A stretch of DNA of 45,821 nt from a virus (lineage: Duplodnaviria; Heunggongvirae; Uroviricota; Caudoviricetes). The notes under the pieces are model-generated. The model saw only the letters and a list, made by a program, of their open reading frames with translations, had not been told where the DNA came from and did not search any database. Below are positions 500 to 44,748 of this stretch, one piece after another. Made by a program: the position numbers and the translations under genes. The stretch lies in IMG/VR virus record IMGVR_UViG_2695420343_000003. One strand, given 5' to 3'. The number at the start of each line of letters is the position of its first letter. The stretch's first letter is position 1.

Positions 500-602
500 G
501 CAAGGCAACTAAGCCTGCATTAATGCCAACTTTTAGCGCACGGCTCTCTCCCAAGAGCCATTTCCCTGGACCGAATACAGGAATCGTATTCGGTCTTTTT
601 TT
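500..602 (+). ncRNA. sdsR: SdsR (RyeB) small RNA, sigma-S dependent; 3' end overlaps prophage attL
   Basis: Sequence gcaaggcaactaagcctgcattaatgcc...ccgaatacaggaatcgtattcggtcttttttt matches my recollection of E. coli SdsR/RyeB, ending in a terminator hairpin and T-run; lies between yebY and pphA homologs as in K-12. Confidence 0.7.
577..596 (+). repeat. attL core (direct repeat with attR), inside sdsR terminator
   Basis: acaggaatcgtAttcggtct here vs acaggaatcgtGttcggtct at 44729..44748 (19/20 identical); integrase gene lies 140 bp away. Confidence 0.6.
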
Positions 603-733
603 AATTGTATTTAAAATCAATCGGTTGCAAACGTCTTCCCGAAATTCCCCGAAATTTACTCGAATTTCTGTATTCCGGTCTTTTTTGGTTATATCACAAC
701 CAAAACGCATTTAACAATCCATTTACGTTAAAA

Positions 734-1810
734 TCAGAGCAGTAAGTACGTTTTTTCTCTCTCATCAAGATACATTTTTGTTGTCTTCTCCGATGTGTGG
801 CCAAGTAGACGCTGAGCAAATTCTTCTCCACATGTTTCTTTGTACAATCGTCCAGCCAGACTTCTGATCTCGTGAAAAGTTGGTGGGTTTTCACTGAACT
901 GGATACCTGTTAATTTTCTGGCTGCGACAAATTTTTTTGTCAGGCCATCCGGGTGAATGCTGCCGTCAGGGCTGTTTTTTCTAATCCCGGCACTGATTAG
1001 ATAATCTCCCCGGCTTACCAGGCGGCAGCGTTCAACTACTGTACCAAGCCGTAGACCAGCGACAGGAAGTCTGAGTGACAGGGGGATAGCAATCATCATT
1101 CCTGTCTTAATTTGCCTGATGTGGAGACGATCATCATAAATCTCACTGAACCGCATATTTGTTATGTCTTCGCGACGTTGTCCTGTTACAAGGGCTAAGT
1201 CCATAGCTAATGGGAACCATGTCGGAAGTTGATCTGCTGCCTCCCTGATGCAGTTGTATGTCTTTAGTTTCAGCCGTTCTCTTGTAACTACTATTTTCGG
1301 TGCTCTTGTTGGCGTTACTGGATTTTGAGATATACGTCCTTCAACAATGGCCTCGCGGAACATATCAGATAACACAGAACGCATTGATCCTGCCATCGTG
1401 TTTTTCCCTCCTTCAATCCACAAATCAAGAAACTCGGCAATATGGCGAGTGGTTATTTCTGTCAGTAAAACCCCTCCTAATTTTTCTTTTATTGTCTCCA
1501 GTTGATTTACCCGAATTTTATAAGTATTTCTGGACACTTTTCTCCTTATAAGAATCGTTTTGTAACGTTCAATCCAGTCTGCCATAGTAAATGAGTCGAA
1601 CCCTTTTAGTTTTTCAATTAAGGCAGCAGGAGAGTAGTTTTTGTATATATAATGATTTGCTTCAATTGCCTGCGCTACTGCATCTCTTCTTGAAATTTTA
1701 CCTAGTGTAAATTCTTCTTTCGTCAGAGGGTTGCGCCAGTAATATGCTTTGTCCCTCCTTCGATATGTTAAGTTTTTAGGCAAATTGGGATCGTATTTTT
1801 TCCGCTGCAT
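734..1810 (-). CDS. Phage integrase (tyrosine recombinase, lambda Int family)
   Basis: 358-aa ORF; C-terminal catalytic-domain residues consistent with tyrosine recombinases (…[11 protein letters not shown]…[13 protein letters not shown]); adjacent to att site and overlapped by the xis ORF. Confidence 0.9.
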
Positions 1811-2063
1811 GTTTTAACTTCTCCAGTAACGGACTGTCTCTCCCTTGTCGCCCATTAGGCTGATGGTGTGTTATATCGGTATCAACCTTATTTGGGTTGA
1901 TATAGAAAGCTTCCGGAACCACCCTGTAACTCCTCCCGTGTAGTTCAGGTGCAGGATAAATGTTTCCATTCCTTGCCCATCGTCTCAGCGTTGATATTGA
2001 TGGTGGGTTATCCGGATATCTGAGTTTTCCCCACGTTTTGAGTGTCACAAGATTCATTGCCAT
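1776..2063 (-). CDS. Excisionase (Xis-like)
   Basis: 95-aa basic protein immediately upstream of and overlapping int; motif TLRRWARNGNIYPAP resembles lambda Xis DNA-binding region. Confidence 0.7.
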   Translation of the reverse strand: MAMNLVTLKTWGKLRYPDNPPSISTLRRWARNGNIYPAPELHGRSYRVVPEAFYINPNKVDTDITHHQPNGRQGRDSPLLEKLKHAAEKIRSQFA

Positions 2064-2163
2064 ACCTCTTACGATATGACCGCCAGTAAATATACAGAAT
2101 ACTGGCGGATGTGGTTGATTTTTAATAATCAGCTATGAAGTTCTAATTTGTATATAATGCAAC

Positions 2164-2352
2164 TCACGAGGACAGAAGTTTCTCGCAATTAAAATTTATC
2201 AGCTTTACTTTCTGCTCTCTGGAAACGCCTGCTTCTTTTTTCCCTGAGAGCATTTTTTCGCATTCTGATTTCGTTAATTTAGATTTTGAATATCTTGTCC
2301 AGTTAGTAGGAGTGCCACCTTCCTTTTCAATAGTGGCAGTAATTTTATACAT
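2164..2352 (-). CDS. YdaC-like small protein (DUF1187), hypothetical
   Basis: 62 aa from ATG at 2352 preceded by GGAGG RBS; the track ORF 2164..2421 has an unsupported N-terminal extension; position matches ydaC in Rac. Confidence 0.45.
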   Translation of the reverse strand: MYKITATIEKEGGTPTNWTRYSKSKLTKSECEKMLSGKKEAGVSREQKVKLINFNCEKLLSS

Positions 2353-2539
2353 GAACACCTCCATTATTATTTCCAGTAGTTCGTTTATTCCATCTTTCGA
2401 GTGCTTCTTTTTCACTTCCACTATAGCCGGTTCGGGATTCGCATCCGTTACACTTTGCGCGGTAATATCCTGAAATGGCTTTCACCGTTACTGATGGACA
2501 ACCACAAAACGGACATGGTTTGACTTTTTCATACCGCAT
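2345..2539 (-). CDS. ralR: Restriction alleviation protein Lar/RalR
   Basis: MRYEKVKPCPFCGCPSVTVKAISGYYRAKCNGCESRTGY… matches recalled Rac RalR (Cys4 zinc ribbon); start placed at internal Met. Confidence 0.8.
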   Translation of the reverse strand: MRYEKVKPCPFCGCPSVTVKAISGYYRAKCNGCESRTGYSGSEKEALERWNKRTTGNNNGGVHV

Positions 2540-2602
2540 TGTCTTTTCTCTCATAAAATAAAGTTTTGTTATGGCGGTGAGGCTACACCGCCATAGTAAA
2601 TA

Positions 2603-3655
2603 TCAGGAGCCGATATATTCTGGTTTCATATCTGTCAGTGTCGTTTTATACGCCTCATATAATTCTCCCAGATGTGGTCGTGCAGCATTCAGCGTATTTT
2701 CCAGAGCAATAAATTTTTGTTCTGCTTCTGGATCACCTGATGAAGGCAGGTCATTTATCATCGTCTCAATACGGGCAATAGCATTGAGACGGTGATGACG
2801 CTGAACCACTTTTCCTTTAAGTTCTGTGTAGAGAGCGCCAAGTGTATTTTTATGATCTTCCACTTCCTGGCGAAGTGATGTTGTTTCTCCGGTGCTTTGT
2901 GCCTGCTCAATACGTTCACGGAAAGCACTGATCCAGTTTTCCCCGGCATCCTGCTCAATAATTGTTGTTTCACGTTCCGCACGGCAGGCGGATGTATTTT
3001 TATGTTCCTGAACCGGATTAATGATTTTTTCCTGTGGTTCGTCCAGTTCGTCCCGGGTGTACACTCCAAGAATCACTTCAGGGCAATAAAGGCGCGCCCA
3101 GCGTTTCAGTGCCAGATAGGCAAGCTGCTGGCGAGGATCATCGGCCCATAACGTTGAGTTACGTGTTCTGGCCTGCGCCAGAAGTAACTCCAGTACGCGT
3201 GGCTTGCTCTCTCCGCGTAGTGTTGCCTGGACGCGAACTCCGATCCCGTTTTCATCGGCCAGCTTCCAGCCAGGTACACGATATTCTTTCCCCTTGTCGT
3301 TCTTCCTGATTTCAAATTTCCCGATAATTTTTTCCCACGGCCCGAACCAGTCATATTCAATACGCCCGGTTAACGGCCCACGAGTACTGATTACGGCATT
3401 AACCAGTTGCGCTTCATATCCGAGCACACCATTCACAACGAAAGTTTTCTGAGCTACTGCGTAAGGGTTCATTTGCCACTGCATCGCCTGCATGGTGATG
3501 GCCATGCAGTCTGATGGATTTCCCCGGAGGTGTTCCGGTACAGTAGCCATGCCGGAAGCCATTACCTGGGAAAATGTCTGAATTGCAGCCAGGGACTGAG
3601 GGCTGAAAACCGCAACATTAGAGTTAATATTTTCTTGTTGAGTTAATTCGTTCAT
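2603..3655 (-). CDS. Putative single-strand annealing recombinase (RecT-like partner of RecE)
   Basis: 350-aa ORF in the position of recT, directly upstream of recE on the same strand; call is from synteny, sequence differs from K-12 RecT. Confidence 0.5.
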   Translation of the reverse strand: MNELTQQENINSNVAVFSPQSLAAIQTFSQVMASGMATVPEHLRGNPSDCMAITMQAMQWQMNPYAVAQKTFVVNGVLGYEAQLVNAVISTRGPLTGRIEYDWFGPWEKIIGKFEIRKNDKGKEYRVPGWKLADENGIGVRVQATLRGESKPRVLELLLAQARTRNSTLWADDPRQQLAYLALKRWARLYCPEVILGVYTRDELDEPQEKIINPVQEHKNTSACRAERETTIIEQDAGENWISAFRERIEQAQSTGETTSLRQEVEDHKNTLGALYTELKGKVVQRHHRLNAIARIETMINDLPSSGDPEAEQKFIALENTLNAARPHLGELYEAYKTTLTDMKPEYIGS

Positions 3656-3666
3656 TGTGTCCTTCC

Positions 3667-6600
3667 TCAGATGCTCAGTGCTTCAAGACGACGAAGATCA
3701 AAGTCGTTTAATTCGTCGGTATAACTTTCGGTAATCGGTGCTGGCCAGTTGTTTGTCTCCAGAGCTTCGTTTATCTGTCGTAGTGTCCGGCGATATTCCT
3801 GTCGACCAAGTTCCAGGAGTTCCTGCGAGGCTTCCACGACGGCCACCCAGTGATAGCCAGCATCTTTGTTGACGAAGATCCAGAAAAATTTGTCCAGGTT
3901 TGCCACATCGCAATACATTGCTGCGCTGAGGTGATAATCACGTTCAATAATTTCACGGTGCAGGCGATCTTTCAGTCGTTCCTGTCGCACATAACCGAGG
4001 CTGACTGACTTCACGTCGGCGCAAATGCTTTCGTATGGCAGCCGGATTTCGATATCAGGACGGACCCTGATTTCCAGCCCGGTTTCTTCATCAAACCCGA
4101 AATAGCTGATTTCAGATTTGCGATCCGGGTGGTTGAGTAGCCTTGCTGCATCAGTATTGTTTTGCAGTGCTGCGTGAATATTTTTTGCCTGTTCATACAT
4201 ATCCGGACTGATAAACGTTTTTCCGGCGTTTTCTTCTTGCTGGCGTTTTTGCCAGTCCTCCAGTGTTACCAGTTCCGGGCGAATTTTCCGGGCGATTTCG
4301 GTTAATTGCTCTTTTGTGCCACTGATGTTGTAAGGCAAAGATTTAGCACGTTCTTTTTTTGCCAGTTCTGGATCTACAGTTTCAATTTGCTCCAGGAGCT
4401 GCTCTCGTGTTCCACTGGCTTTCAGCAGAGGAGGGAGGCTTGCGTTGTATTCTTTAATACAGGCTTTCATTGCTGATGCTGTGTGTTTTTCCCCCTCAGG
4501 AATACGCCGGAATTCCTCCGGAAGCGAACCGTAAAGGATGCCTGTTTCTTCGGCCCCGGCACTTACCGACAGTGGCTGTATAAGAGTGCTGTTGTAGCTT
4601 TCGATCCACTCTTTCATCTGCTCTGGTGTCATCAGTGCTGGCAGACTGGCATTGTGTTTTTTAATGATGGCGATCAGTTCGTTAGAAGTAGTAACCACAT
4701 ATTCAGGAACCGGTACCGGAATGGCATACTCATCAGCGAATTTATCCGTTTCCAGAACATAGCTGTGAATAATCCGCCCACGCAGCAATGCATCACTTTC
4801 CTCGCCCGGAATAGTTCCGGCAATGTGCCGTCCGTGGTAATACATCAGGCTGATGCGGGCATCCTTCAGCATTGTGCTGCTTATTCCGTTGGCGGAGTGA
4901 TAAACCTCGTTCGGGAGGTTTTCATAGCGGCCAGGCTCGAAATATGACGGCCACATGATTTCAGTTACTACAGGTGCTGTCGTTTCACCAGCTTCATCAC
5001 TGCAATCGCAATGCGGATTGCTGCCAGCGTTCTCCTTGTGCGGATGTTCAGCACCTTCCATTTCCTCCAGACCTTTTTCCTGATATTCATTCTGATTTTC
5101 TTCATTAAAGGTTTTCTGATACGTTGCGTCGCCCATCACCGCGCCACAGTCAGGACAGTTGCCGCCGCCAGCCTTACCGCAGGCGGTGCAAACTTTCTCC
5201 GTTTCCTGTTGTTGCACTACTGGCTCAGGCTGTTTCGTTTCTGGCTCGTTTTGTTGCGTATTTGGGTCGTTCTGTTCCGTTTCTGGCTGATTCTGGTACA
5301 CAGAATCGCGGGTCTGGATCCCCTTAACCCATTTCGGATCATTCGGGTCGCTAATCCCTTCAACAAATTCTCCGCGAGAGGCAGCCAGTAATTTGTCTGC
5401 ATCGACAGGATTTTTGGGCGGAATGTTTTTCCGGGCTTCATAGAGTTCTGCCCGCAGTTTCTGATATTTCGCATCAACAGAATTTACCTGTGACTGAGCA
5501 TCCAGCGGCTGCGTGTCCTGATGATGTTCAGTTGCATCCGGTTCCACTGTTTCAGCCGTTGCCTGTTCATCTGCCATTGCGCAAGATGGTTGCAGTTTTT
5601 CTTCATCATCCTGTTTTTCTTCTTCTGTTACACGCTGCGGCATCGGGGCAGAGGAACGACCGCAGGCAATATCCACGATTTCTGGATCAGGGTTGGCATG
5701 ATCAGTTTCAGTCAGTACTTTGTTAAGATATTCAGTGACGTGTGCGGGGATAACCTCGATCCCAATTGGTGCTTCTTTTACGGACGCAACCACGATGGCG
5801 CGGGAATAATCCAGCCCGCCAGGCATGGTGATGAATTTGTCGCGGAAAACAGAAAAGGGCGGTTTATTTTCAGCGATAATTTCCTCGACACGTTTAGCGT
5901 GTGCCGGATGAAGGTTATAAATGTCCACGTCCATTGAACGAGCCAGTACGCCAGTGGCTACGTCGCGCGCCAGTGACGTCAGATCGTGAACGAAACCTTC
6001 GCCGCGATCGGTGAGGTTCCCGCCGCCAGCATTAGCGCCGGAAGCCGTGCGCGTGATGCGTGAAACACGATTTCCTTTCATCCACTCTTTTGTCAGCAGA
6101 CCGCGATCGGTGTAGTCTGCGTCCAGGTATGCTTCGAAAAAAGCAGTCATCAGCCCCAGGCTTGAATTGCCTGGATTAGGGAAAACTCTGTCAGTATCAC
6201 GCACCAGTTTATGGAGATCGCGAATTTCCAGCGGGTCGAGCAGGCTGGTTTTGTGGGAAACAGCCAGGGCAGTAACAGCTGGTAGTTCTTCAGCCCGTGC
6301 AATGTGTAATGCCTGGAGTCCGTCGCGTGAAACGTGCGTTACCGGTTTTTCGCTGCCGTGTTGAGCAGGCCAGCGAATGGGCAGCTCCTGACCGGAAATC
6401 GGGAGTAGCATATTCTCCTCAATCTCCGTCATGTCTTCGCCATTAACATTGGTATTGTCAGTGCTGGCTGGTTTGTCCTGCGCAGAGGATGAGGGCGCGA
6501 TAAATACCATTGTGATGCCATCTTCCCCGCCTTTTTCGTAACGGTTGCAGAATTCCGTATCAAATACGCCCTCTGGTGGAAGGTCATCAACAACGGGCAA

Positions 6601-6795
6601 ATTGACGCGAACAGGTTTTTTAAAGTCATCTTCATCGTAGCCAGCATCGTCAATCGCAACAGCACCACGGGATATGGCAATGGATAATTTTTTCGCTTCA
6701 GCCCAGTAGAAACCGCCTTTAATACCGAGACGTTTTCTTACTTTGTCATTTTTTGCTTCGTAATACAGTGGGTAAACTTGTTTATCGGTGCTCAT
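3667..6795 (-). CDS. recE: Exodeoxyribonuclease VIII (RecE)
   Basis: 1042-aa ORF with long identical stretches to recalled Rac RecE ([29 protein letters not shown]…, [29 protein letters not shown]). Confidence 0.9.
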
Positions 6796-7243: not shown

Positions 7244-7414
7244 TTAAAGTTCGTGTGCCATCTGGTCTTTTTCGGCACAGATTTCACTACAATATTTTTT
7301 CATTTCCGTCGTTGGTATAACTCCACGCATGAAATGAAGTGGTCTTGTAATGATTTTGCTTTCTTCAATTTCTTTATTGCAAAGGTGATAAGCACATTTT
7401 ATTTTCTTAGTCAT
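7244..7414 (-). CDS. ydaE: YdaE-like zinc-binding small protein (56 aa)
   Basis: Translated by hand (below the 60-aa ORF track cutoff): [56 protein letters not shown]; start ATG overlaps kilR stop (TAATG). Confidence 0.7.
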   Translation of the reverse strand: MTKKIKCAYHLCNKEIEESKIITRPLHFMRGVIPTTEMKKYCSEICAEKDQMAHEL

Positions 7415-7635
7415 TACCATGACTCCGCCTTTACAGGTAAACCATCACGACCGAGGAAGACTTTAATCATGCAGTCAGAAATGCATGTTTTTGTAGTCAG
7501 GCTACGAATATAAAGTTTTCGCTTTTTAATATTGTTTGCCGAGGCGATATACGTCCGGCCTTCATGAAGAACATAATCGCCAGGGGTCACACACTGACGT
7601 GGTATTTCATCAGTTCCGAAGTGATGAGCAATCAT
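7414..7635 (-). CDS. kilR: KilR (FtsZ-targeting cell division inhibitor)
   Basis: [49 protein letters not shown]… matches recalled Rac KilR; start at second Met with GGAG RBS. Confidence 0.8.
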
Positions 7636-8059
7636 AATTATCTCCATTTTTACAAATGAATTTTGTCGATGCGGTGCCTGGTGCCTCCAGGTGACGTTAA
7701 CCAGTTAACAATTAACGCCGGATAATCCACCCATAACACTGATGCTTTTAACTGTTCCGCGTGCGCTTAGCCGCATTCACCGCATCACAAAATTCACTTT
7801 AAAAAGGGGCGGCAGGGCAGCCACGGAGTAGAACTGATGCCGCCAAAGACTACACAAAGCAATGTCGTTATTTACAACCGGAGGCGCACTCCCACCATTT
7901 AAATTTAACAGACAAGACCGACTCTTTATGGATACCGGAAATGCGCCTTCGTGTTGTGCCCGGTTTTATTTCACCACCTCCGGGCTTTGGTGGTATCTTT
8001 ACTGGAGTTCTCACACAACCAGTAAGGAAATGAATATGCCAACGTATCTCGCCAGAGTA

Positions 8060-8067: not shown

Positions 8068-8082
8068 GGTAATGACTCCAAC

Positions 8083-8586
8083 TTATTGATAGTGTTTTAT
8101 GTTCAGATAATGCCCGATGACTTTGTCATGCAGCTCCACCGATTTTGAGAACGACAGCGACTTCCGTCCCAGCCGTGCCAGGTGCTGCCTCAGATTCAGG
8201 TTATGCCGCTCAATTCGCTGCGTATATCGCTTGCTGATTACGTGCAGCTTTCCCTTCAGGCGGGATTCATACAGCGGCCAGCCATCCGTCATCCATATCA
8301 CCACGTCAAAGGGTGACAGCAGGCTCATAAGACGCCCCAGCGTCGCCATAGTGCGTTCACCGAATACGTGCGCAACAACCGTCTTCCGGAGCCTGTCATA
8401 CGCGTAAAACAGCCAGCGCTGGCGCGATTTAGCCCCGACGTATCCCCACTGTTCGTCCATTTCCGCGCAGACGATGACGTCACTGCCCGGCTGTATGCGC
8501 GAGGTTACCGACTGCGGCCTGAGTTTTTTAAATGGCGGAAAATCGTGTTGAGGCCAACGCCCATAATGCGGGCGGTTGCCCGGCAT
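8083..8586 (-). CDS. insB: IS1 transposase InsB
   Basis: 167-aa ORF matching recalled InsB ([30 protein letters not shown]…). Confidence 0.9.
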
Positions 8587-8780
8587 CCAACGCCATTCAT
8601 GGCCATATCAATGATTTTCTGGTGCGTACCGGGTTGAGAAGCGGTGTAAGTGAACTGCAGTTGCCATGTTTTACGGCAGTGAGAGCAGAGATAGCGCTGA
8701 TGTCCGGCGGTGCTTTTGCCGTTACGCACCACCCCGTCAGTAGCTGAACAGGAGGGACAGCTGATAGAAACAGAAGCCAC
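8505..8780 (-). CDS. insA: IS1 InsA
   Basis: 91-aa ORF matching recalled InsA ([43 protein letters not shown]…). Confidence 0.9.
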
Positions 8781-9078
8781 TGGAGCACCTCAAAAACACC
8801 ATCATACACTAAATCAGTAAGTTGGCAGCATCACCGAACTATATAATGCTGAGCCAGAGGATTACGAAGGGCTTCATAAATATATGCTCTCACTAGGATT
8901 CAGGAGAACGATCCCCCATGGAGATGGTTCGTATAATCAACTCCCGGACGGAACTTATGTTTCCGAAAAGGGCGGTGATATTTATCAAATTCGCAGCCAG
9001 ATATCTGACTATGCAGACCGACTATCCAGATATCGCGCGTCTGTTTTTGTTTGCGAATTCAGTCAATGCGCATGGTAT

Positions 9079-9744: not shown

Positions 9745-10164
9745 TTACTCCGGTGGGGGATTATCTTTAAGCCTGCCTCTCAAATATTTTTCTACATACT
9801 CATCGATTTCTTTTAGCCGGACTTCAAATAGCTCAATCATTCGTTGTTGTTCTGAGCCCGGTAGCTGGTTAAACAACTCAAGAAGTTTTCGTTGGGATTC
9901 ATTTAACCACAATTCAGAAGATTCCTGTTCTCCAAATAGGAGCTCAGGAGGAGATATGCCAAGTGCCTTTCCCAATACGACAGCGTCATGCACTCCAACA
10001 TTTCTGCTGCCCGCCTCATAGTTACCTATACGCGATTGCGTCCATCCGCAGATTTCAGCAAGTTTTCCTTGAGATAAACCAAGCTTCTGCCTGCGCTCTT
10101 TAAGACGCATTGCAATTTTGTCATTGAGCCTACTAGCGGCAATTTTTTCGTTTTCTTTTTCCAT
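9745..10164 (-). CDS. Phage repressor (CI-like, XRE-family HTH)
   Basis: 139 aa with HTH motif (LGLSQGKLAEICGWTQSRIGNYEAG); divergent from a Cro-like gene across a 96-bp operator/promoter region. Confidence 0.8.
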   Translation of the reverse strand: MEKENEKIAASRLNDKIAMRLKERRQKLGLSQGKLAEICGWTQSRIGNYEAGSRNVGVHDAVVLGKALGISPPELLFGEQESSELWLNESQRKLLELFNQLPGSEQQRMIELFEVRLKEIDEYVEKYLRGRLKDNPPPE

Positions 10165-10175
10165 TGCATCCTTGT

Positions 10176-10190
10176 ATCACGAATCGTGAT
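10176..10190. promoter_or_regulatory. Candidate operator palindrome in the immunity intergenic region
   Basis: Perfect 7-1-7 palindrome atcacgaAtcgtgat; second palindrome acacaAGGtgtgt at 10223..10235 lies between candidate -35 TTGACC (10212..10217) and an A/T-rich -10. Confidence 0.45.
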
Positions 10191-10260
10191 TTACATAAAA
10201 CACAAAACAGCTTGACCATATAACACAAGGTGTGTTTAAAATTGTCATCGGAGGTTTTCA

Positions 10261-10503
10261 ATGAACAAAATTTCAACATATCGAAAACAGCTTGGGCTGT
10301 CTCAAAGACAACTTGCTGTTCAGTTAGGGTGGATACAAAGCCGACTGGCAAATTACGAAGCAAATTTTCGTACCCCTGGACTAGAGGAGTGCAGAAAAAT
10401 TGTTTCTACCCTTAATCGGCTTGGCGCTCATTGTGGACTTGACGATATATTCCCCCCAGACGGTAAGCATAGCGAAAACAGCATAGGAGCGGTTGATTCA
10501 TGA
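10261..10503 (+). CDS. Cro-like HTH regulator
   Basis: 80 aa; HTH (LGLSQRQLAVQLGWIQSRLANYEA); first gene of rightward operon, GGAGG RBS. Confidence 0.7.
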   Translation: MNKISTYRKQLGLSQRQLAVQLGWIQSRLANYEANFRTPGLEECRKIVSTLNRLGAHCGLDDIFPPDGKHSENSIGAVDS

Positions 10504-10922
10504 AAATCAGGCATGAGCACATCGAATCAGTGTTGTTAGCCCTGGCAGCCGAAAAAGGGCAGGCGTGGGTCGCTAACGCAATTACTGAAGAATATCTGCG
10601 CCAGGGGGGCGGCGAATTGCCCCTTGTACCAGGCAAGGACTGGAACAATCAGCAGAATATCTATCACCGTTGGTTGAAAGGTGAAACGAAAGCGCAAAGG
10701 GAAAAAATTCAGAAACTGATCCCTGCGGTTCTGGCAATTCTTCCGCGCGAGCTGCGTCACCGACTCTGCATCTTCGATACCCTGGAACGCCGTGCATTAC
10801 TGGCGGCGCAGGAAGCGTTGAGTACGGCAATTGATGCGCATGATGATGCAGTCCAGGCCGTTTACCGGAAAGCACATTTCAGCGGTGGTGGGTCGCCCGG
10901 CGATTCTGTCGTAGTGCATTGA
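10500..10922 (+). CDS. ydaT: YdaT-like protein (CII functional analog / putative toxin)
   Basis: 140 aa; MKIRHEHIESVLLALAAEKGQAWVANAITEEYLRQGGGELPLVPGKDWNNQQNIYHRW… matches recalled Rac YdaT. Confidence 0.7.
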   Translation: MKIRHEHIESVLLALAAEKGQAWVANAITEEYLRQGGGELPLVPGKDWNNQQNIYHRWLKGETKAQREKIQKLIPAVLAILPRELRHRLCIFDTLERRALLAAQEALSTAIDAHDDAVQAVYRKAHFSGGGSPGDSVVVH

Positions 10923-10966
10923 TTGAAATTAATCGTGCCGGATTGTTTTGTTCGGTATCAGTTAAA

Positions 10967-11386
10967 TGTAACGCTGCGAGCGTTACAAGGTGAAAACAAA
11001 TGGCTTCAAACTGGATAAAGCTCGAGGTTATTACGCCGGATAAGCCGGAAATATTCAGGCTTGCTGAGATTCTGAATATTGATCCAGATGCCGCATTAGG
11101 GAAGGTTATTCGCTTCTGGGCATGGGCGGATCAACAAATGATAGACGGTAATGCAAATTGTAACGCTCGCGGCGTTACAAAAAGTGCAATAGATCGCATC
11201 ACTTTTATGGCTGGTTTTGCTGATGCGTTAATTCAGGTTGGATGGCTGGTCGAAAATGACGTTGGGCTTTCTCTACCTAACTTTGAACGTCATAACGGAA
11301 AAAGCTCTAAAAAACGGGCGGTTACAAACGAGCGAGTTACAAAAATACGCGAACTGAAACGAAAAGGTAACGCTGCCAGCGTTACA
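10967..11386. repeat. Iteron-like palindromic repeats GTAACGC-N5-GCGTTAC (candidate origin / initiator binding sites)
   Basis: Copies at 10967..10987, 11159..11179, 11367..11386, plus tandem GTTACAAA x2 at 11321..11344; one upstream of and three inside the O-like gene. Confidence 0.55.
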
Positions 11387-11788
11387 CAAACGGATCAAAA
11401 AGCGTTACCAGAGGAAGAGGAAGAGGAAGATCTAAATACTGATCTCCCCCTAAATCCCCCTCGCCAAAAACGAGCGTCTAAAAAATTCGAGCCGGAGGCT
11501 ATTGAGCTGCCCGATTGGTTGCCGGAAACACTCTGGCATGAGTGGGTCCGGTTCAGACAGGCATTGCGAAAACCGATTCGAACGGAGCAGGGCGCTAACG
11601 GGGCGATACGGGAACTGGAAAAATTCCGTCAGCAGGGTTTTACACCTGAGCAGGTGATTCGACACAGCATCGCCAATGAATACCAGGGCCTGTTCGCGCC
11701 GAAAGGTGTTCGGCCTGAGACGTTGCTCCGACAGGTTAACACCGTCTCGTTGCCGGACAGTGCGATCCCGCCAGGCTTCAGGGGGTAA
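11000..11788 (+). CDS. Replication initiation protein (lambda O-like / YdaU-like)
   Basis: 262 aa; position upstream of the DnaC-like gene; internal repeat array and acidic linker (EEEEEED) as in O-type initiators. Confidence 0.65.
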   Translation: MASNWIKLEVITPDKPEIFRLAEILNIDPDAALGKVIRFWAWADQQMIDGNANCNARGVTKSAIDRITFMAGFADALIQVGWLVENDVGLSLPNFERHNGKSSKKRAVTNERVTKIRELKRKGNAASVTQTDQKALPEEEEEEDLNTDLPLNPPRQKRASKKFEPEAIELPDWLPETLWHEWVRFRQALRKPIRTEQGANGAIRELEKFRQQGFTPEQVIRHSIANEYQGLFAPKGVRPETLLRQVNTVSLPDSAIPPGFRG

Positions 11789-11794
11789 CGGACC

Positions 11795-12541
11795 ATGAAA
11801 AATATTGCGACAGGAGGCGTTCTGGAGCGTATCCGCAGACTGACCCCACCACATGTAACCGCCCCATTCAGAACGGTTGCGGAGTGGCGCGAGTGGCAAC
11901 TTGCTGAAGGCCAGAAACGTTGCGAGGAGATCAACCGCCTGAATCGTCAGTTGCGGGTGGAAAAAATCCTGAATCGCTCTGGCATCCAGCCGTTGCACCG
12001 CAAATGCTCGTTTGCGAATTACCAGGTGCAGAACGAAGGGCAGCGATACGCGTTAAGCCAGGCGAAATCCATCGCCGATGAACTGATGACCGGGTGTACA
12101 AATTTTGCGTTCAGCGGAAAACCTGGTACCGGGAAGAATCACTTAGCGGCAGCTATCGGGAATCGCCTGCTGAAAGACGGTCAGACAGTGATTGTGGTTA
12201 CCGTGGCTGATGTCATGAGCGCCCTGCACACCAGCTATGACGACGGGCAGTCAGGCGAAAAATTTTTGCGGGAGCTGTGCGAAGTGGATCTGCTGGTTCT
12301 TGATGAAATTGGCATTCAGCGCGAGACGAAAAACGAGCAGGTGGTACTGCACCAGATTATTGATCGACGGACAGCGTCGATGCGTAGCGTGGGAATGCTG
12401 ACAAACCTGAACTATGAGGCCATGAAAACATTGCTCGGCGAGAGGATTATGGATCGCATGACCATGAACGGCGGGTGTTGGGTGAATTTTAACTGGGAGA
12501 GCTGGCGTCCGAATGTCGTCCAGCCAGGAATTGCGAAGTGA
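11795..12541 (+). CDS. DnaC-like helicase loader (IstB-type AAA+ ATPase)
   Basis: Walker [12 protein letters not shown] and Walker [10 protein letters not shown]; 248 aa. Confidence 0.85.
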
Positions 12542-13805: not shown

Positions 13806-14846
13806 CTAGGAGGCTTTGATTATATTAAGCAAATGTTTTCCAATCGTTTCAGACATCTTCGGAGGGACCGCATTTCCTATTTGACGAGCCCGAGATTGCA
13901 AAGAACCAATAAATTTATAATCCAAAGGAAATGTTTGTAGACACGCTGCTTCACGAACCGATATTGCTCGATTTTGTGTTGGATGTCCAAAACGTCCATT
14001 TGAATAGCTAATACAACGAGTTGTTAGTCCGCTGGCTGGTTTGTCCCAACTCAAACGTCCATATACGTCTGTATGCCCTTTATGGTTACGATGGCATTCT
14101 AAAATCAATTCATCTGGCCAAAATTCTCGACTTCCACCTTCAGGAGTGCATTTTATTCTACGTAAATTAAGCTCTGATAAGCGTGCAGCTTCATGATCAG
14201 GAATACTATTATGCTTTTCTCCTGCTTCTATCTTCGGTAAATTAGCGATCCAGTCCTTTACTGTTGAATAGGGAGTATTTCCAACCCCATGTGTAGGAGA
14301 AGGCAATGCGACATAAAAATCCTTGGATGCAATGAGCACTAATCTTTCTCGCGTCTGTGGTACACCGTACCACGCAGCTGGCATTACTTTATAATCTACA
14401 CTATATCCCTTTGATGAAAGCATTTCTAAAAACATCATGAATGTTCCTTCATTTTTGTTAAACTTTTGCATTCCTGGCACGTTTTCAACAAAAATAAAAT
14501 CAGGCATATAATGCTCTACAAAACGACTGAATTCCTTTAATAGATCTAATCGTGGATCATCATTTTTTTTATTTGAGTTTTGCTTAGAGTACGGTTGACA
14601 AGGCGCACATCCTGAAAAAAGAATGTAATCATTACGATGTTTTTTTACTAACTTGTTTATGGCATTGTTGTCGATTAACCTAATGTCCGAGTTAATAAAA
14701 GCAGCTTGCGGGAAATTTGCACGAAATGAACTGGCTGCATCAACGTCGAAATCGAGGCCAAAAACAATATCCATTCCAGCTTGATGGAAACCTTGGCTGG
14801 TTCCACCACAACCGGAAAAGAAGTCAAACACTTTGATTTTTTTCAT
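13806..14846 (-). CDS. DNA (cytosine-5)-methyltransferase (Dcm-like)
   Basis: C5-MTase motifs: I FDFFSGCGG, IV GCAPCQPYS (catalytic Cys), VI FVENVPGM, VIII QTRERLVLIA, X GNAVPP; AT-rich; 23 bp downstream of the ATPase gene on the same strand. Confidence 0.9.
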   Translation of the reverse strand: MKKIKVFDFFSGCGGTSQGFHQAGMDIVFGLDFDVDAASSFRANFPQAAFINSDIRLIDNNAINKLVKKHRNDYILFSGCAPCQPYSKQNSNKKNDDPRLDLLKEFSRFVEHYMPDFIFVENVPGMQKFNKNEGTFMMFLEMLSSKGYSVDYKVMPAAWYGVPQTRERLVLIASKDFYVALPSPTHGVGNTPYSTVKDWIANLPKIEAGEKHNSIPDHEAARLSELNLRRIKCTPEGGSREFWPDELILECHRNHKGHTDVYGRLSWDKPASGLTTRCISYSNGRFGHPTQNRAISVREAACLQTFPLDYKFIGSLQSRARQIGNAVPPKMSETIGKHLLNIIKAS

Positions 14847-14869
14847 TTTTCCCTCTGCATCCAGAATCA

Positions 14870-16699
14870 CTATCTAATGATACCACGGTCAAGAGCCTGA
14901 GTAATTATTTTTCTTATTTTTATAAATTCAGGCAATTCATTTTTAAGTCTTGCGGTCATCATTTGTTGGAGGCAAAAAATTTCCTCTGCATTTACTTCTT
15001 CTTTATCATACAGGTGTTGCGCTAATAATCTTATTTGATTCTTATACAGCTCTGGATCATTAGAACTCCAGGTCTGTGAATCAATTATTTCTTTTTCACT
15101 TGGCGTAATTGCCTTTTCAATGAGTAATTGTTCGGGAGTATCAAATGGTAAATACTGCACTTTATTGAATGCATACTCAAGCACTTGCCTTTTGAGTCTA
15201 TTAGATTCTTGTTCATTTTTTTTGCCATTACTACCACTGGCATTGATAATTAACTCGCAACCATAATATTTGCACATTGTATTAACTAAATCAGCATCAG
15301 CAATTTCACTAATTCTTACTGGTTTTATTTTTTTGTTTTTATCACCATCAAGTAAAAACAAAATATCATTGCGTTCTACCACAGCGTAACTGGGAAGATG
15401 CTTGCTTAAAATTGTCTCCGAACCACCTGGTATATAACTTACACTAAATGATAAACTTAATCTTTCATAATTTTTAATCGCTTTATCTATAATTGCTTTA
15501 GCTAATTTATCTTCTACAATTATTGTTTTCTTGTTAATATCATGCCCTAGCTCTATAAAAGCTTCATCCGGTGCTATATTTTGAACTATTTTAGCTGTTT
15601 CACTCTCTTCATCAAAAACAAATAATTTAATAGCATCTTTGGGAAGAGTGTTCACAATAACAGGAGAATGGGTTGATATTACCACTTGATGTTTTTTCTG
15701 CTCAACAATAGAGTACAGAACATCCATCATCCTTTTCTGTGCACCAGGGTGAAGTGAAACTTCTGGTTCGTCAAGAAGAATTAATGAATTAGGTTTGGCC
15801 GAATAAATATTGAGTATTAGTGAAACTATTGCAAATTCACCACTTCCAGCAAAAGCTTCTGTATAGTTCAACTTATCAGTTGAAAGTAAAGCGGTTCCTC
15901 CTCTGGTTCCAAATAACCGATGCTCAAGAAATTTAATGACTTTATATTTTTTTCCTAATATAAATGAGACGTGCTCAACTAGTTCTGGCGCCAAGGTTAT
16001 ATTTTTAACAATGGTTTCCGTCCCCCAAAGTCTTAAATTATTTAGCTTTTCATCAAAAGCTTTCTTTATATATTTAGATTTGCTTCTGATATAGTCTTGC
16101 TTTGTAATTAATACACCACTCTTCTTCTTTCTTAATTTAAAATCAGAGTGATACATACATCTATCAAATGCACTTATTTCCGATCTGAAATCTAGGAAAA
16201 CCAATCCCTTCTTGATTTTTTTCCATCTGGTTGCATTACTATTAGCACCCAGATCATCCGAAATACTCTCCATGTTATCACCAACAGATGGTCGACTTGT
16301 TTCCCAATAATCGATTGTTTTCTTGGTAGCATTGATACGCGCTTGGAGTATTTCAACTAAACGGCCATCAGCATTTTTATATCCATATATATATCTAGGC
16401 TTAAGAGAACTGCCATCAGCAAGTTTTAGGTCAGGAAACTCATCTGTTTCAGTTGTGAACCAATAACGAGTTATATTTTTACCATGTGGGCAACCAAATA
16501 GCGCTTTGATAACAGAACTTTTATTAGTTCCATTTTTTCCTACTAAAGCCGTTATAGGGAACTGAAAATCGATCCTTGCATTCTGCTCTATATTTTTAAA
16601 GTATGGAAAACGGATATGTTGTATGAATGGTTCAAATTCACCGTTTTTTAACGCGCACTGGAGTGTTCGAATTTTGCTCTTGTATGCGGAAGTGCTCAT
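14870..16699 (-). CDS. OLD-family ATP-dependent nuclease (ABC-type ATPase + Toprim-like domain)
   Basis: Walker A LVGKNGTNKSS, signature-like AGSGEF, Walker B LILLDEPEVSLHP, H-loop ISTHSP; C-terminal Toprim-like motifs TIIVEDK and FLLDGDKN; very AT-rich. Confidence 0.8.
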   Translation of the reverse strand: MSTSAYKSKIRTLQCALKNGEFEPFIQHIRFPYFKNIEQNARIDFQFPITALVGKNGTNKSSVIKALFGCPHGKNITRYWFTTETDEFPDLKLADGSSLKPRYIYGYKNADGRLVEILQARINATKKTIDYWETSRPSVGDNMESISDDLGANSNATRWKKIKKGLVFLDFRSEISAFDRCMYHSDFKLRKKKSGVLITKQDYIRSKSKYIKKAFDEKLNNLRLWGTETIVKNITLAPELVEHVSFILGKKYKVIKFLEHRLFGTRGGTALLSTDKLNYTEAFAGSGEFAIVSLILNIYSAKPNSLILLDEPEVSLHPGAQKRMMDVLYSIVEQKKHQVVISTHSPVIVNTLPKDAIKLFVFDEESETAKIVQNIAPDEAFIELGHDINKKTIIVEDKLAKAIIDKAIKNYERLSLSFSVSYIPGGSETILSKHLPSYAVVERNDILFLLDGDKNKKIKPVRISEIADADLVNTMCKYYGCELIINASGSNGKKNEQESNRLKRQVLEYAFNKVQYLPFDTPEQLLIEKAITPSEKEIIDSQTWSSNDPELYKNQIRLLAQHLYDKEEVNAEEIFCLQQMMTARLKNELPEFIKIRKIITQALDRGIIR

Positions 16700-16847
16700 T
16701 GTTTACTAAAGTCCATAATAGGCTATTAACAGGTTGAGGATGACATGATAGCGATTTTTAATGCAGATAAAAGAGGTTTGTTGGTTAGCACACAACAGAA
16801 AAAGTGACCTTACCGCTTGAACGAAAGGTAAGGGTAAGTAGGCTGTG

Positions 16848-17000
16848 ATGCAGCAAAAGGCGATGTTAATCGCCCTGATCGTCATCTGTTTAACCGTCGT
16901 TGTGACGGCACTGGTAACGAGGAAAGACATCTGCGAGGTACGAATCCGAACCGGCCAGACGGAGGTCGCTGTCTTCACAGCTTACGAACCTGAGGAGTAA
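16848..17000 (+). CDS. hok: Hok/Gef-family type I toxin (50 aa)
   Basis: Hand-translated: MQQKAMLIALIVICLTVVVTALVTRKDICEVRIRTGQTEVAVFTAYEPEE, near-identical to recalled HokD/RelF; short upstream ORF ends TGATG-coupled to the start (mok-like). Confidence 0.8.
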   Translation: MQQKAMLIALIVICLTVVVTALVTRKDICEVRIRTGQTEVAVFTAYEPEE

Positions 17001-18158: not shown

Positions 18159-18448
18159 TGGTGGATTTACGTAAAGCGGCGCAGGGGCAGATGTGCACCG
18201 TCAGAATTCCTGGCTACTGCAATCACAATCCCGAAACATCTGTGCTGGCGCATTACAGGCTGGCGGGGACGTGCGGAACAGCGACAAAACCACACGATAT
18301 GCAGGCAGCGATTGCCTGCAGCTCATGCCACGATTTAATCGACGGGCGGGTAAAAACCAGCGATTACACCAAAGAAGAATTACGCCTGATGCATGCAGAA
18401 GGTGTTTTTCGCACACAAGAAATCTGGAGAAAGGAAGGTTATTTATGA
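18158..18448 (+). CDS. YbcO-like putative nuclease (DUF1364)
   Basis: 96 aa; MVDLRKAAQGQMCTVRIPGYCNHNPETSVLAHYRLAGTCGTATKPHD…ACSSCHD resembles recalled DLP12 YbcO. Confidence 0.7.
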   Translation: MVDLRKAAQGQMCTVRIPGYCNHNPETSVLAHYRLAGTCGTATKPHDMQAAIACSSCHDLIDGRVKTSDYTKEELRLMHAEGVFRTQEIWRKEGYL

Positions 18449-18987
18449 TTTACCCAACAAATACAGGCAAAAGCGGGGAACACCTTCGTCTCACCACGCT
18501 GGAAAGTGTCTGGATTCAGGGAAAACTGCGCATGTGGGGGCGCTGGTCGTATATTGGCGGCGGTAAGACGGGAAATATGTTTAACCAGTTGCTGGCATCC
18601 AAAAAATTGACGAAAACAGCCGTCAACGAAGCCCTGCGCAGGATGAAAAAAGCAGGTCTGGACAAACCTGAACTTGAGGCTTTTTTGCGGGATATGATCA
18701 ACGGCAAGCAAAAAAGCTGGCTGGTGCATTGTACTGATGCAGAGGCGTTATGTATTGATAGAGTCATAAGTGAGGTGCTGGCAGAGCATCCTGGATTGAT
18801 TAGTGTCCTCCGGCAACGGTATGAAGGGCGGGGGATGACTAAGCGCAAAATGGCTGAATTGCTAAATGATGTACATCCTGAGTGGTGTTTTAGCACATGC
18901 GAAAAGCGAATTGCTAATTGGTTGGCTGTTGCTGAGTATGCCCTATATATTCCCATGCGAGAATCATTTGCTCAAAAAATAGCTTGA
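18445..18987 (+). CDS. Putative late-gene antiterminator (Q-like)
   Basis: 180 aa, last gene before the lysis region; TTATGA overlap with the YbcO-like gene; call is positional, not motif-based. Confidence 0.4.
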   Translation: MIYPTNTGKSGEHLRLTTLESVWIQGKLRMWGRWSYIGGGKTGNMFNQLLASKKLTKTAVNEALRRMKKAGLDKPELEAFLRDMINGKQKSWLVHCTDAEALCIDRVISEVLAEHPGLISVLRQRYEGRGMTKRKMAELLNDVHPEWCFSTCEKRIANWLAVAEYALYIPMRESFAQKIA

Positions 18988-19061
18988 TTTTTTACGCATA
19001 AACTGCTTCAATTCCGGTATGCTTCGCAAAGCTGTATCGCGAGGCGAACCAAGCGCATGAA

Positions 19062-19085
19062 CTTTACCAGAACCCGCCATTGAGC
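19062..19085 (+). terminator. Candidate tR'-like terminator downstream of the Q-like gene
   Basis: cccgccattgagcggg hairpin followed by ttttgttgttt; ~75 bp after the Q-like stop; candidate promoter -35 TTGATT 18976..18981, -10 TTCAAT 18999..19004. Confidence 0.4.
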
Positions 19086-19112
19086 GGGTTTTGTTGTTTC
19101 TGGAGAACACCC

Positions 19113-19343
19113 ATGAAATTTTATGAATTATCTTCTGATTCCCGATCTCAGGCCAGAATCACACTGGGTCAGTTCATTGTGGCTCGGGCTAACGCGGGGG
19201 TGGATGATTTTGAAAATTTGGGGCATTGCATCGCTGCCGCGTTTATTGCGATGGAGCGCTATGAAAGCGCCCCTGAGGTTGGTGAGGGGCGTAGCGGGAA
19301 CGGAATACCCGTTAATGGCGATCAAAACTCACTTCTTGATTAA
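19113..19343 (+). CDS. Hypothetical small protein (77 aa)
   Basis: ATG with GGAG ~8 nt upstream; convergent with and overlapping the 3' end of the 19329..19607 gene. Confidence 0.3.
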   Translation: MKFYELSSDSRSQARITLGQFIVARANAGVDDFENLGHCIAAAFIAMERYESAPEVGEGRSGNGIPVNGDQNSLLD

Positions 19344-19607: not shown

Positions 19608-19701
19608 ATATACTCCTTTAATTGATATGGTTACTTTTGGCGATTTAACGATATCAAACACGAGGATATACCGCCAGAAGCTTAATCTGGCACTCCAGCT
19701 G

Positions 19702-20166: not shown

Positions 20167-20169
20167 TTA

Positions 20170-43115: not shown

Positions 43116-43121
43116 ACGGTA

Positions 43122-43586
43122 TCACGCCGCCCTCACGATATAGTTAAATGCGATATTGCGGGGGCGAGCTGATACATAAGCCCACCAGTCATATCTTTGT
43201 GCACCTTTAGAGGATGCATCAAATATCCACTTTTTGCCATTTATGACCCCCAGTTGATTAGAGGTTAAAGCGTCACCAAATCCGTATTGTGTAGAGCCGA
43301 GCGAACTGATATCTCCGGTATCATTATCATCAAAACCGGATACGATAGTCCCTTCCTGAAATGAAAGTAGCGCACGCCCGGTATCAACTTTGCGCCCGTC
43401 GTCCCATCCACGGATAAACTCACCGCGCAAATCGGGAAGACGGAGGGTCGGGTAGACTCTGGCCAGAACAGGATATTGTTCTTTGGTGAACGTAGCTCCG
43501 TTGCACTGTAACCAGCCTGCTGGCGGTGTGGCGGTGGGCCATGGAACCGGTACACCAACAGGCAATGCAGAGCCTTCCCCCAAACC
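43122..43586 (-). other. Silent alternative tail-fibre C-terminal cassette (Sv') in inverted orientation
   Basis: Minus-strand ORF sharing [26 protein letters not shown]…[34 protein letters not shown] with the expressed fibre, then diverging; no in-frame constant N-terminus in this orientation. Confidence 0.6.
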
Positions 43587-43600
43587 AACGTTTATGAAAA
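43575..43600. repeat. Invertase crossover-like site (right), gix/pix-like
   Basis: ttcccccaaaccaacgtttatgaaaa; imperfect dyad with AAACC half-sites; 55 bp upstream of truncated invertase gene. Confidence 0.55.
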
Positions 43601-43654
43601 TGCAGAAATAACGAGCAAATGGCATCATTCCTGCTTTTGTCAGGGAGATCTACC

Positions 43655-43750
43655 ATGCTTATTGGCTATGTACGTGTGTCAACAAATGACCAGAACACAG
43701 ATCTACAACGTAATGCGCTGAACTGTGCAGGATGCGAGCTGATTTTTTGA
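43655..43750 (+). pseudogene. Truncated DNA invertase (Pin/Gin/Hin family serine recombinase), 31 codons
   Basis: MLIGYVRVSTNDQNTDLQRNALNCAGCELIF* matches recalled N-terminus of Pin/Gin including catalytic Ser in VRVSTNDQ; GGGAGA RBS; downstream sequence unrelated. Confidence 0.75.
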
Positions 43751-44040
43751 GGGTAAATCATCAGCATGAGACTAATAATTTAGCGTCCAATTCTGGTTTT
43801 TTTGGTTGCGCTCTCCCCGCCCAGAATTGTGCGTCAATTAGCCCAGAAAAACGCGAAGTTACAAATGTCGACCATTTTCGAACATGGTGTGAGGTGTCAC
43901 ATCTTGGTAGTACGTTGCAGTATTTCGTGGCGTATGGTGAGAAGATAAACCCGGTGAGTGAACATCGTATGACGTAGAAGAACATGTGCGACATGGGATA
44001 AAATAGCCCATTAATAATCCACAGATAAACGGAGGTAGTA

Positions 44041-44229
44041 ATGTGTGATGTAACGCATGATAACGGGTACAGCTTTGAGGAATGGCTGGAGGAACTGAAA
44101 GCATGTGCATCTGCGCAAGGAGACACCGTTAATGCGGACAATAATGACTGGTTTGGTGATGCTGAATGGTACGATGACTACAAGATGGAGGTGTGTGCTT
44201 GTGAGGCGTATCATCATAAGTTTGGATAG
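44041..44229 (+). CDS. Hypothetical small acidic Cys-containing protein (62 aa)
   Basis: Strong RBS GGAGG 5 nt upstream; D/E-rich (MCDVTHDNGYSFEEWLEELKACASAQGDTVNADNNDWFGDAEWYDDYKMEVCACEAYHHKFG). Confidence 0.45.
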   Translation: MCDVTHDNGYSFEEWLEELKACASAQGDTVNADNNDWFGDAEWYDDYKMEVCACEAYHHKFG

Positions 44230-44728
44230 TGCAGCATAATATTATACCCCGCGCTTGGTATGTTTAAGCGGGGGTATTGTCCTAACCCGAATAAATTATT
44301 GCTCAATTATGAGGGGAGGATTTGTAGCTTCCCCTTTCGTCTGAAATTGCCAGTTAGTTTGTCCAAAAAGTCACGAAGCAACACATACGAAATAATTTAA
44401 AGAGTTATTTGTCTAATGTTGAAAGCCGCAGCCACGTCGTATGCAAGAACGTGCCACGGCTGGCTGATGGACGTTCGATAGCGCGAGTTTGAATGAAAAT
44501 CAGCCGGAGGTGATTTTACATAATTGTTGCGGAATCATTCAATATAGGGATTGCTTATTTCTGCCTGGATTGGTCTGAAATAGTCCCGAAATTTTCTCTA
44601 AAAAACTCGAAAAAAATGGTAACTAATTGAATGCATTAATATGCAATGGTACGTGTTTGGGATTAAAAGATGAGCGTAATTTTGCTTAACAAATTAATTT
44701 AAAAAGGGTTTCTTGTTTGTTGACGAAA

Positions 44729-44748
44729 ACAGGAATCGTGTTCGGTCT
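44729..44748 (+). repeat. attR core (direct repeat with attL); displaced 3' fragment of sdsR
   Basis: acaggaatcgtgttcggtct + ctttttat; duplicate of the sdsR terminator region found at 577..596. Confidence 0.6.

Follow-up and report, generated by a model that had tools for sequence, protein, structure and literature searches.

A temperate phage very probably integrated into the 3' end of the small RNA gene sdsR, rebuilding sdsR and splitting its antisense partner RyeA

Phages and islands of the P4, P22 and HP1 types insert at the 3' ends of tRNA and tmRNA genes, where they use a 7-nt loop with symmetric stems and carry a replacement for the 3' end that they displace. Integration into the small RNA gene sdsR (ryeB) was published in 2008: as excerpted in later papers, that study found phages and older islands in the last 23 bp of ryeB, a stretch internal to ryeA, and found ryeA expression to be altered (Balbontin et al., 2008, J Bacteriol 190:4075, cited in PMC7380047, PMC3333887 and PMC3603311). 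The same excerpts assign the last 23 bp of ryeB to phage PhiW104 of Salmonella DT104 (PMC7380047, PMC3333887, PMC3603311), whose lysogeny is described there as lowering ryeA and raising ryeB in Salmonella (PMC7380047), and island catalogues already list “RyeB” as a target name (PMC10111431). In Escherichia coli K-12, RyeA is a sigma-70 transcript of ~270 nt that antagonizes the SdsR toxin, sdsR has a sigma-S promoter of demonstrated function, and pphA is transcribed mainly via read-through from the sdsR promoter (PMC6610125). Here we analyze the IMG/VR virus record IMGVR_UViG_2695420343_000003, a stretch of 45,821 nucleotides that we call the window, in which a prophage lies between yebY and pphA. 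It is very probable that a temperate phage integrated here site-specifically in the 3' end of sdsR, rebuilding sdsR and splitting RyeA.

Neither the kind of event nor the site is new. The locus resembles PhiW104 and the Salmonella enterica islands, as far as the excerpts describe them, in its target (the last ~20-23 bp of ryeB/sdsR), in the replacement of the 5' part of ryeA, and in being a recurrent hot spot. It differs in host species and in phage mosaic. Inside the 23 bp given in those excerpts, the E. coli bacterial site (attB) differs from the phage site (attP) at two positions, which brings the uninterrupted identity down to 11 bp. The core would be the same as that of the PhiW104 system, and the integrases would be related. 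Unlike the elements that target tRNA or tmRNA, this one has used a sigma-S-dependent, Hfq-binding small RNA with a cis-antisense partner, and the RyeA strand is not preserved.

The initial annotation of the window had placed a prophage of ~44 kb in the 3' end of sdsR between yebY and pphA, and had bounded it by a 20-bp repeat. This repeat holds up. The copy at the left junction (attL) reads ACAGGAATCGTATTCGGTCT and the one at the right junction (attR) reads ACAGGAATCGTGTTCGGTCT, with an identity of 19/20, and no other match turns up anywhere in the window when both strands are searched with up to three mismatches. There are no matches at all in 100 dinucleotide-preserving shuffles of the window. 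A repeat search of the window extends the similarity to 37 nt (572-608 against 44724-44760) at 86%. The left copy corresponds to the loop and the 3' half of the SdsR terminator, as had been claimed, and the T-runs of the two copies differ in the way described, with tcttttttt on the left and tctcttttt on the right. A direct core repeat is therefore found at both ends of the prophage, and a search of the window for tRNA and tmRNA genes finds none, hence no alternative attachment site of that type.

The site can be seen both empty and in its phage form. When window positions 100-596 are joined to 44749-45248 and queried against 5426 complete E. coli genomes, the joined flanks match in 5426/5426 and are contiguous in 5190. 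Each contiguous empty site holds a single sdsR, which is the outcome of the very alignment to prophage-free loci that the initial annotation had proposed, and the K-12 annotation gives the gene order stated there, yebY - sdsR/ryeA - pphA. In CFT073 the joined flanks match at 996 of 997 positions; the only difference is window position 588, an A here and a G in CFT073, and K-12 MG1655 likewise has G at the equivalent position. The attB of these two strains reads ...CGTGTTCGGTCTCTTTTTATCTG. The attP of phage pPE4 (GenBank PP818812.1) and of an IMG/VR contig reads ...CGTATTCGGTCTTTTTTTAATTG; the junction is contiguous in PP818812.1, with 94% identity across the join, and is exact over 37 nt in contig IMGVR_UViG_2690316286_000019. 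The prophage thus has an attB in relatives and a contiguous attP, with an intact tyrosine recombinase and an excisionase beside its att site. Between attL and attR the element measures ~44.15 kb and lies between yebY-sdsR and pphA.

The four sites (Table 1) are exact reciprocal recombinants, attL being made of the left side of attB and the right side of attP, and attR of the converse. This places the exchange within the 11 shared bases at 577-587, ACAGGAATCGT. On this comparison, the lone mismatch of the repeat is the difference between phage (A) and host (G), which narrows the crossover to 11 bp. Since attL has the right side of attP and attR that of attB, the sdsR 3' end at the left junction comes from the phage and the one at the right junction is that of the host, displaced, as the initial annotation had supposed. 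Among the IMG/VR matches listed, the position is A in 15/15 attL sites of this phage type and G in 8/8 attR sites, so it falls consistently to the right of the exchange. A crossover in TTCGGTCT had been considered on the assumption of an A at 588 in K-12 sdsR, and was dropped because K-12 and CFT073 carry G. Phage-derived DNA starts within 577-588 and ends within 44728-44739. Position 500, initially taken for the start of the element, is instead the 5' end of sdsR and is host DNA.

The 11-bp ACAGGAATCGT includes the 7-nt loop of the SdsR terminator, AGGAATC (581-587), which is set between inverted stem arms. Integration at tRNA anticodon loops follows the same loop and stem logic. By analogy, AGGAATC may be the overlap region, and the terminator stems may act as inverted core-type sites for the integrase (Int). 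In the model that we propose, the lambda-type tyrosine integrase would recombine attP (...GACGAAAACAGGAATCGTATTCGGTCTTTTTTTAATTG...) with the host attB (...GACCGAATACAGGAATCGTGTTCGGTCTCTTTTTATCTG...). Strand exchange would occur inside the 11 shared bases, with the loop as overlap and the stem arms as core-binding sites. The terminator 3' half and U-tail carried by attP let attL rebuild a full-length sdsR, and the displaced host 3' end stays behind at attR. After excision, the restored attB is predicted to read ...CCGAATACAGGAATCGTGTTCGGTCTCTTTTTATCTG....

The small RNA itself is complete at attL because attP supplies this terminator 3' half and U-tail. The Rfam model RF00111 (SdsR_RyeB) matches window positions 503-602 on the plus strand over its positions 1-100, scoring 118.1 bits where the gathering threshold is 38. 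The terminator hairpin (568-596) folds at -15.8 kcal/mol, the same energy as in the native allele, and is followed by seven T (U7 in the lysogen versus UCUUUUU in the native allele). In K-12 and CFT073 the native terminator has a G.U pair and a C-interrupted U-tail, and the phage end gives an A-U pair and an unbroken U-run, as in the Rfam consensus and in most of the IMG/VR junctions listed. The Rfam scores are higher in the lysogen than in the native E. coli allele for SdsR (118.1 versus 114.4 bits) and for RyeA (180 versus 175-176 bits), and A is found at the variable position in most sdsR junctions among the IMG/VR matches listed. Compared with the G allele of K-12 and CFT073, the phage copy is thus the one nearer to the consensus of the family. 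Judging from these alleles, lysogeny converts sdsR at positions 588 and 597. The native sigma-S promoter lies upstream: the ~50 nt before 499 are identical to K-12, and the only nearby difference is a G to A change at 499 itself. The sdsR remnant at attR lacks the hairpin (-4.9 kcal/mol, z +0.5), and Rfam finds only sub-threshold partial matches there.

The antisense gene does not fare as well. K-12 ryeA (1923066-1923337, 272 nt) maps to the minus strand of the window, where it starts at position 44792 and ends at ~370. The RyeA promoter and the first ~55-65 nt of the transcript are therefore at attR, and the remaining ~210-220 nt are at attL without that promoter, with the body at 596-370, 44 kb away. 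This bears out the initial claim that RyeA/SraC would be split by the insertion, and the contiguous promoter, 5' end and body that define RyeA in K-12 are no longer found together. The Rfam SraC/RyeA model (145 nt) still matches 606-462 on the minus strand at 180 bits, but it covers only the part at attL. The RyeA terminator is also kept on that side, with a minus-strand fold of -20 kcal/mol (z -4.5) followed by UUUUUUAUU. The orphaned segment at attR (44749-44810) differs from K-12 by 1 nt. A terminator scan finds none downstream of the orphaned promoter, nor between the tail-fibre genes and pphA, and transcription from this promoter would run into the phage P arm. At attL, the minus strand from the int stop to the core shows no predicted terminator or notable structure, which makes read-through from int into the RyeA body possible. 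The sole site returned by a promoter scan of attL is a candidate minus-strand promoter in the P' arm, TTTGCA-16-TACAAT at 631-604. The RyeA body at attL would be transcribable only from phage DNA, either by int read-through or from this weak promoter-like site. A distance of 44 kb separates pphA from the sdsR promoter in the lysogen. Expression of both RyeA and pphA would be affected, in agreement with the excerpted PhiW104 report of ryeA going down and ryeB going up in Salmonella (PMC7380047).

The integrase ORF (open reading frame) stops 138 nt from the repeat, close to the ~140 bp initially stated. Its translation shows the R, HxxR, H and Y motifs, and over its full length it is 39-41% identical to the Int proteins of HK022, HK97, 434 and related members of the lambda family. 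Like these phages, the element has an arm-binding domain in Int, xis and int adjoining a short P' arm that bears tandem arm-type repeats, and a P arm that is longer and has its repeat placed distally. Unlike them, it has the sdsR terminator as its core instead of the gal-bio attB, its arm repeat CCCGAAATT is different, and no sib site is identified as such. The CCCGAAATT repeats, two in P' and one in P, are conserved in the attP records, and it is plausible that they are bound by the N-terminal domain of Int. The two attP records and the attL of the O111:H2 relative described below have almost the same P' arm. From ~44420 onward, conservation of the P arm extends to the attP records of pPE4 and IMG/VR and to the O111 attR, and this point, where similarity to other carriers of the att module resumes, is taken as the probable outer edge of the P arm.

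Both arms hold further structures. In the P' arm, the 3' half of the sdsR terminator and its T-run recur in degenerate form at 671-686 (GTATTCCGGTCTTTTTT); this second copy does not vary between the two attP records and the O111 attL, and there is no convincing fold over 650-700 (z -0.8). In the P arm, the hairpin at 44438-44475 lies ~255-290 nt from the core, and in pPE4 its 14-bp stem is perfect (-28 kcal/mol, z -4.3). Between pPE4 and the copies of the window and IMG/VR there are two paired changes, which keep the pairing (CTGCGG/CCGCAG versus CCGTGG/CCACGG), and this hairpin may be a sib- or terminator-like element. The surrounding 77 bp (44420-44496) are 88% identical to HK97 DNA beside, not over, the annotated sib site. 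We did not call this stretch a lambda sib, as the HK97 match only adjoins sib and the fold in the window is unremarkable (z -0.6).

The same junction recurs widely. The attL junction is contiguous with this integrase in 228 of the 5426 complete E. coli genomes (~4%), and these lysogens account for nearly all of the 236 genomes that lack a contiguous empty site. In the O55:H7 strain DEC5E, the O111:H2 strain 12A and an avian strain, the Int module lies between yebY and pphA. A scan of IMG/VR for the 20-nt core returns at least 120 contigs, which among the matches listed are varied in their flanks on the phage side as well as on the host side. Of the 70 sdsR-left junctions listed, 67 have an Int homologue, 49-99% identical and mostly full length, 56-450 bp from sdsR. 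This indicates one integrase clade, shared by many phage lineages and dedicated to the sdsR site, which evidently spans several enterobacterial hosts. A search of the genome contigs with the Int protein finds two near-identical loci only. Among deposited phages, only three have an Int of this clade: pPE4 (98%), Salmonella phage ZC-S1_prp (73%) and Flyfo siphovirus Tbat2_3 (50%). The clade is thus common in genomes (at least 120 IMG/VR contigs, 228 E. coli genomes) yet rare among isolated phages. PP818812.1 is labelled “Actinobacillus phage vB_Apl-pPE4”, with A. pleuropneumoniae as host; its attP is an enterobacterial sdsR 3' end, and its Rac-like recET/kil/ydaT genes are 91-97% identical to those of the present E. 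coli prophage. The Actinobacillus host label looks doubtful.

Close relatives of the element, pPE4 and the O111:H2 12A and O55:H7 DEC5E prophages, share with it an Int that is 94-99% identical, and their attP or attL is the same. Both the O111 and the O55 prophage also lie between yebY and pphA, with late genes 96-97% identical, and the late operon is collinear with that of the O111:H2 prophage at 96-97%. pPE4 differs in its replication, lysis and structural modules, and the O111 prophage carries other cargo at 13.8-16.7 kb, lacks IS1 and has kept pinE intact. With the K-12 Rac prophage the element shares recE, recT, ralR/RalA, ydaE, kilR, a RacR/DicA-like repressor, ydaS/ydaT-like genes and ydaV. 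Rac, however, is defective and without late genes, whereas this element has a full myovirus late region. It has a Rac-like (lambdoid) early region and a myovirus late region, and it looks largely complete, with all modules (immunity, replication, antitermination, lysis, packaging, head and tail) present as full-length ORFs; against this, an insertion sequence, IS1, has entered the early-left region and pin is cut short. The initial annotation had seen only phage genes between the repeat copies. The interior is indeed phage throughout, apart from this one IS1 (8068-8835) and the cargo genes. IS1 is flanked by an 8-bp target duplication, GAACTATA, at an early-left site between DicF/kilR and the repressor. 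The cargo stretch (13806-16978) also has a 90-amino-acid ORF on the minus strand that matches no domain or profile, and “sce7726 family” and “beta family” proteins take the place of this cargo in the O111:H2 relative; it looks like a variable defence slot. A small Hok/Gef-like ORF lies at ~16845-17000, where a relative has an annotated Hok/Gef gene, and together with RalA and DicF it makes up a set of small regulators borne by the prophage. At the right end, 43122-43751 appears to be the frozen remnant of an invertible tail-fibre switch.

Table 1. Features of the window and composition of the four att sites (positions are those of the window; aa, amino acids)
Feature	Position	Strand	Evidence or details
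yebY, host left flank, 113-aa ORF	1-342	+	annotated yebY in CFT073, K-12 and lysogens
Bidirectional terminator hairpin in the yebY-sdsR gap; RyeA terminator on the minus strand	370-412		fold and K-12 ryeA mapping
sdsR (ryeB), rebuilt full length	499-602	+	499-576 host, 577-587 shared, 588-602 phage
attL core repeat	577-596	+	crossover interval 577-587 (ACAGGAATCGT), from the att comparison
P' arm	597-733	+	tandem CCCGAAATT(C/T) decamers 638-647 and 648-657; degenerate third 659-668
Tyrosine integrase, lambda Int type, 358 aa	734-1810	-	Pfam Phage_integrase 5e-16, Phage_int_M, Arm-DNA-bind_1 2e-6
Excisionase	1776-2063	-	Pfam Exc 6.5e-14; PGAP excisionase in relatives
RalA antitoxin small RNA	2168-2346	+	Rfam RF02694, 223.8 bits
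ralR toxin	2345-2554	-	PGAP ralR in relatives; PHROG Lar-like
recT and recE, Rac-type recombination module	2603-6795	-	PHROG RecT 1.7e-145; exonuclease VIII
kilR	7414-7647	-	PHROG Kil 1e-37
DicF small RNA	7858-7807	-	Rfam RF00039, 63.5 bits
IS1, 768 bp, complete	8068-8835	-	both terminal inverted repeats exact; Pfam DDE_Tnp_IS1 2e-78
Immunity/replication: DicA/RacR-like repressor (minus strand), Cro-like, YdaT/CII-like, replication initiator, DnaC-like loader	9745-12541		PHROG; PGAP of relative
C5 cytosine DNA methyltransferase, 354 aa	13806-14870	-	Pfam DNA_methylase 5e-61; PADLOC MTase_II 1e-96
OLD/ABC-type ATPase, 609 aa	14870-16699	-	Pfam AAA_15, AAA_21; PADLOC HEC-04 6e-35, ATPase-Toprim_I-B 7e-27
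Q-like antiterminator, holin, endolysin, spanin region	18193-21022	+	PHROG
Late operon, myovirus type: terminase small and large, portal, major head, tail sheath, tape measure, baseplate J, tail fibre and assembly	21967-43115	+	PHROG
Inverted tail-fibre C-terminal fragment	43122-43628	-	Pfam Collar 1e-15
pin (Gin-type) invertase, truncated to 31 codons	43656-43751	+	reads MLIGYVRVSTNDQNTDLQRNALNCAGCELIF, then stop; relative has intact pinE
P arm	44420-44728	+	CCCGAAATTT arm-type repeat 44585-44594; conserved hairpin 44438-44475
attR core repeat	44729-44748	+	displaced host sdsR 3' end runs on to ~44754
Orphaned ryeA promoter and 5' end	44749-44810	-	start 44792; extended -10 (TGtTATGGT) 44808-44800
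pphA, host right flank	44889-45545	+	annotated pphA in CFT073, K-12 and lysogens
attB layout			GGACCGAAT-ACAGGAATCGT-G-TTCGGTCT-C-TTTTTATCTG
attP layout			TTGACGAAA-ACAGGAATCGT-A-TTCGGTCT-T-TTTTTAATTG
attL layout			GGACCGAAT-ACAGGAATCGT-A-TTCGGTCT-T-TTTTTAATTG
attR layout			TTGACGAAA-ACAGGAATCGT-G-TTCGGTCT-C-TTTTTATCTG

Several points weigh against site-specific integration by a phage that is still able to leave. IS1 lies upstream of kil-recET-xis-int and may be polar on xis and int, which is the main doubt about excision of this copy. The pin invertase is truncated. The exact mosaic of the window is absent from the complete E. coli genomes, where the best matches reach 96-98% over 80-86% of each half. 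The arm motif is not enriched in the window, with 8 matches at up to one mismatch against 4.9 expected, and for the promoter-like site of the P' arm shuffled sequence does as well, with 3.8 sites expected where 1 was found. The crossover interval also presumes that the attB had a G before integration, as attR, K-12 and CFT073 support.

Of the other explanations, the one that survives best is that the phage entered at sdsR as described and is now a locked-in, defective prophage, with neither excision nor particles, whose att sites are scars. This is possible, though we consider it unlikely. The fresh duplication around IS1 speaks for it, since the insertion falls between the repressor and DicF-kilR-recET-xis-int and polarity on xis and int is plausible; so do the 31 codons left of pin and a P-arm hairpin that is less perfect here than in pPE4. 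But the ORFs for int, xis, repressor, replication, Q, lysis, terminase, portal, head, sheath, tape measure and baseplate are full-length and sized as in relatives, the attP of a sequenced phage matches both att arms at 90-97% identity, and the loss of pin merely freezes the choice of tail fibre.

It is hardly credible that the assignment of the two copies is the reverse, with a left copy wholly of the host, a right copy wholly of the phage, an uninterrupted sdsR and an sdsR-like decoy carried by the phage. The left copy does lie within a full-length, high-scoring sdsR. However, native sdsR in K-12 and CFT073 has G at 588, a C-interrupted U-tail and then ATCTG, which is seen at attR and not at attL, whereas attL has the attP-type A, an unbroken T-run and AATTG; as read from these bases, the attB and attP comparison already refutes the reversal. 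A chance match or a homology-driven rearrangement, with the real ends elsewhere (in a tRNA or inside a gene), has next to nothing in its favour: by our arithmetic 19/20 among ~1e9 position pairs has an expectation of ~0.06, which is not overwhelming alone, but the shuffles and the tRNA search came out empty, thousands of genomes have an empty site that the joined flanks reproduce base for base, phage records hold a contiguous attP and the same junctions occur in 228 genomes, so the empty site and attP comparisons refute it.

Site-specific integration into sdsR by a temperate phage is thus the reading that we keep, and it offers a textbook-type case of a phage that uses a small RNA terminator hairpin as its att site and repairs, base by base, the gene that it cuts. 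To the integration already known at this site, the present analysis adds a base-level map of the crossover, the recognition of the repeat mismatch as a phage/host difference, the occupancy in E. coli, and a dedicated integrase clade. The A/G difference between attP and attB provides a natural marker that narrows the crossover to 11 bp, and the sdsR-targeting clade is a possible aid for automatic annotation of att sites.

A far more speculative idea, which we hold to be improbable, concerns the control of int itself. The int mRNA could cross attL antisense to sdsR, end at the RyeA terminator and so gain a RyeA 3' tail of ~227 nt; pairing with SdsR could then lead to RNase III cleavage, in an analogue of lambda sib retroregulation that would respond to sigma-S and growth phase. 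If this were true, the choice of sdsR as an att site would be a regulatory one, and not merely that of a convenient hairpin, and lysogeny would at the same time strip the SdsR toxin of its RyeA antitoxin and uncouple pphA from the sdsR promoter. Whatever the fate of this idea, RyeA is parted from its promoter, and pphA from its main K-12 promoter, in ~4% of complete E. coli genomes, which matters for work on SdsR, RyeA and pphA in these strains.

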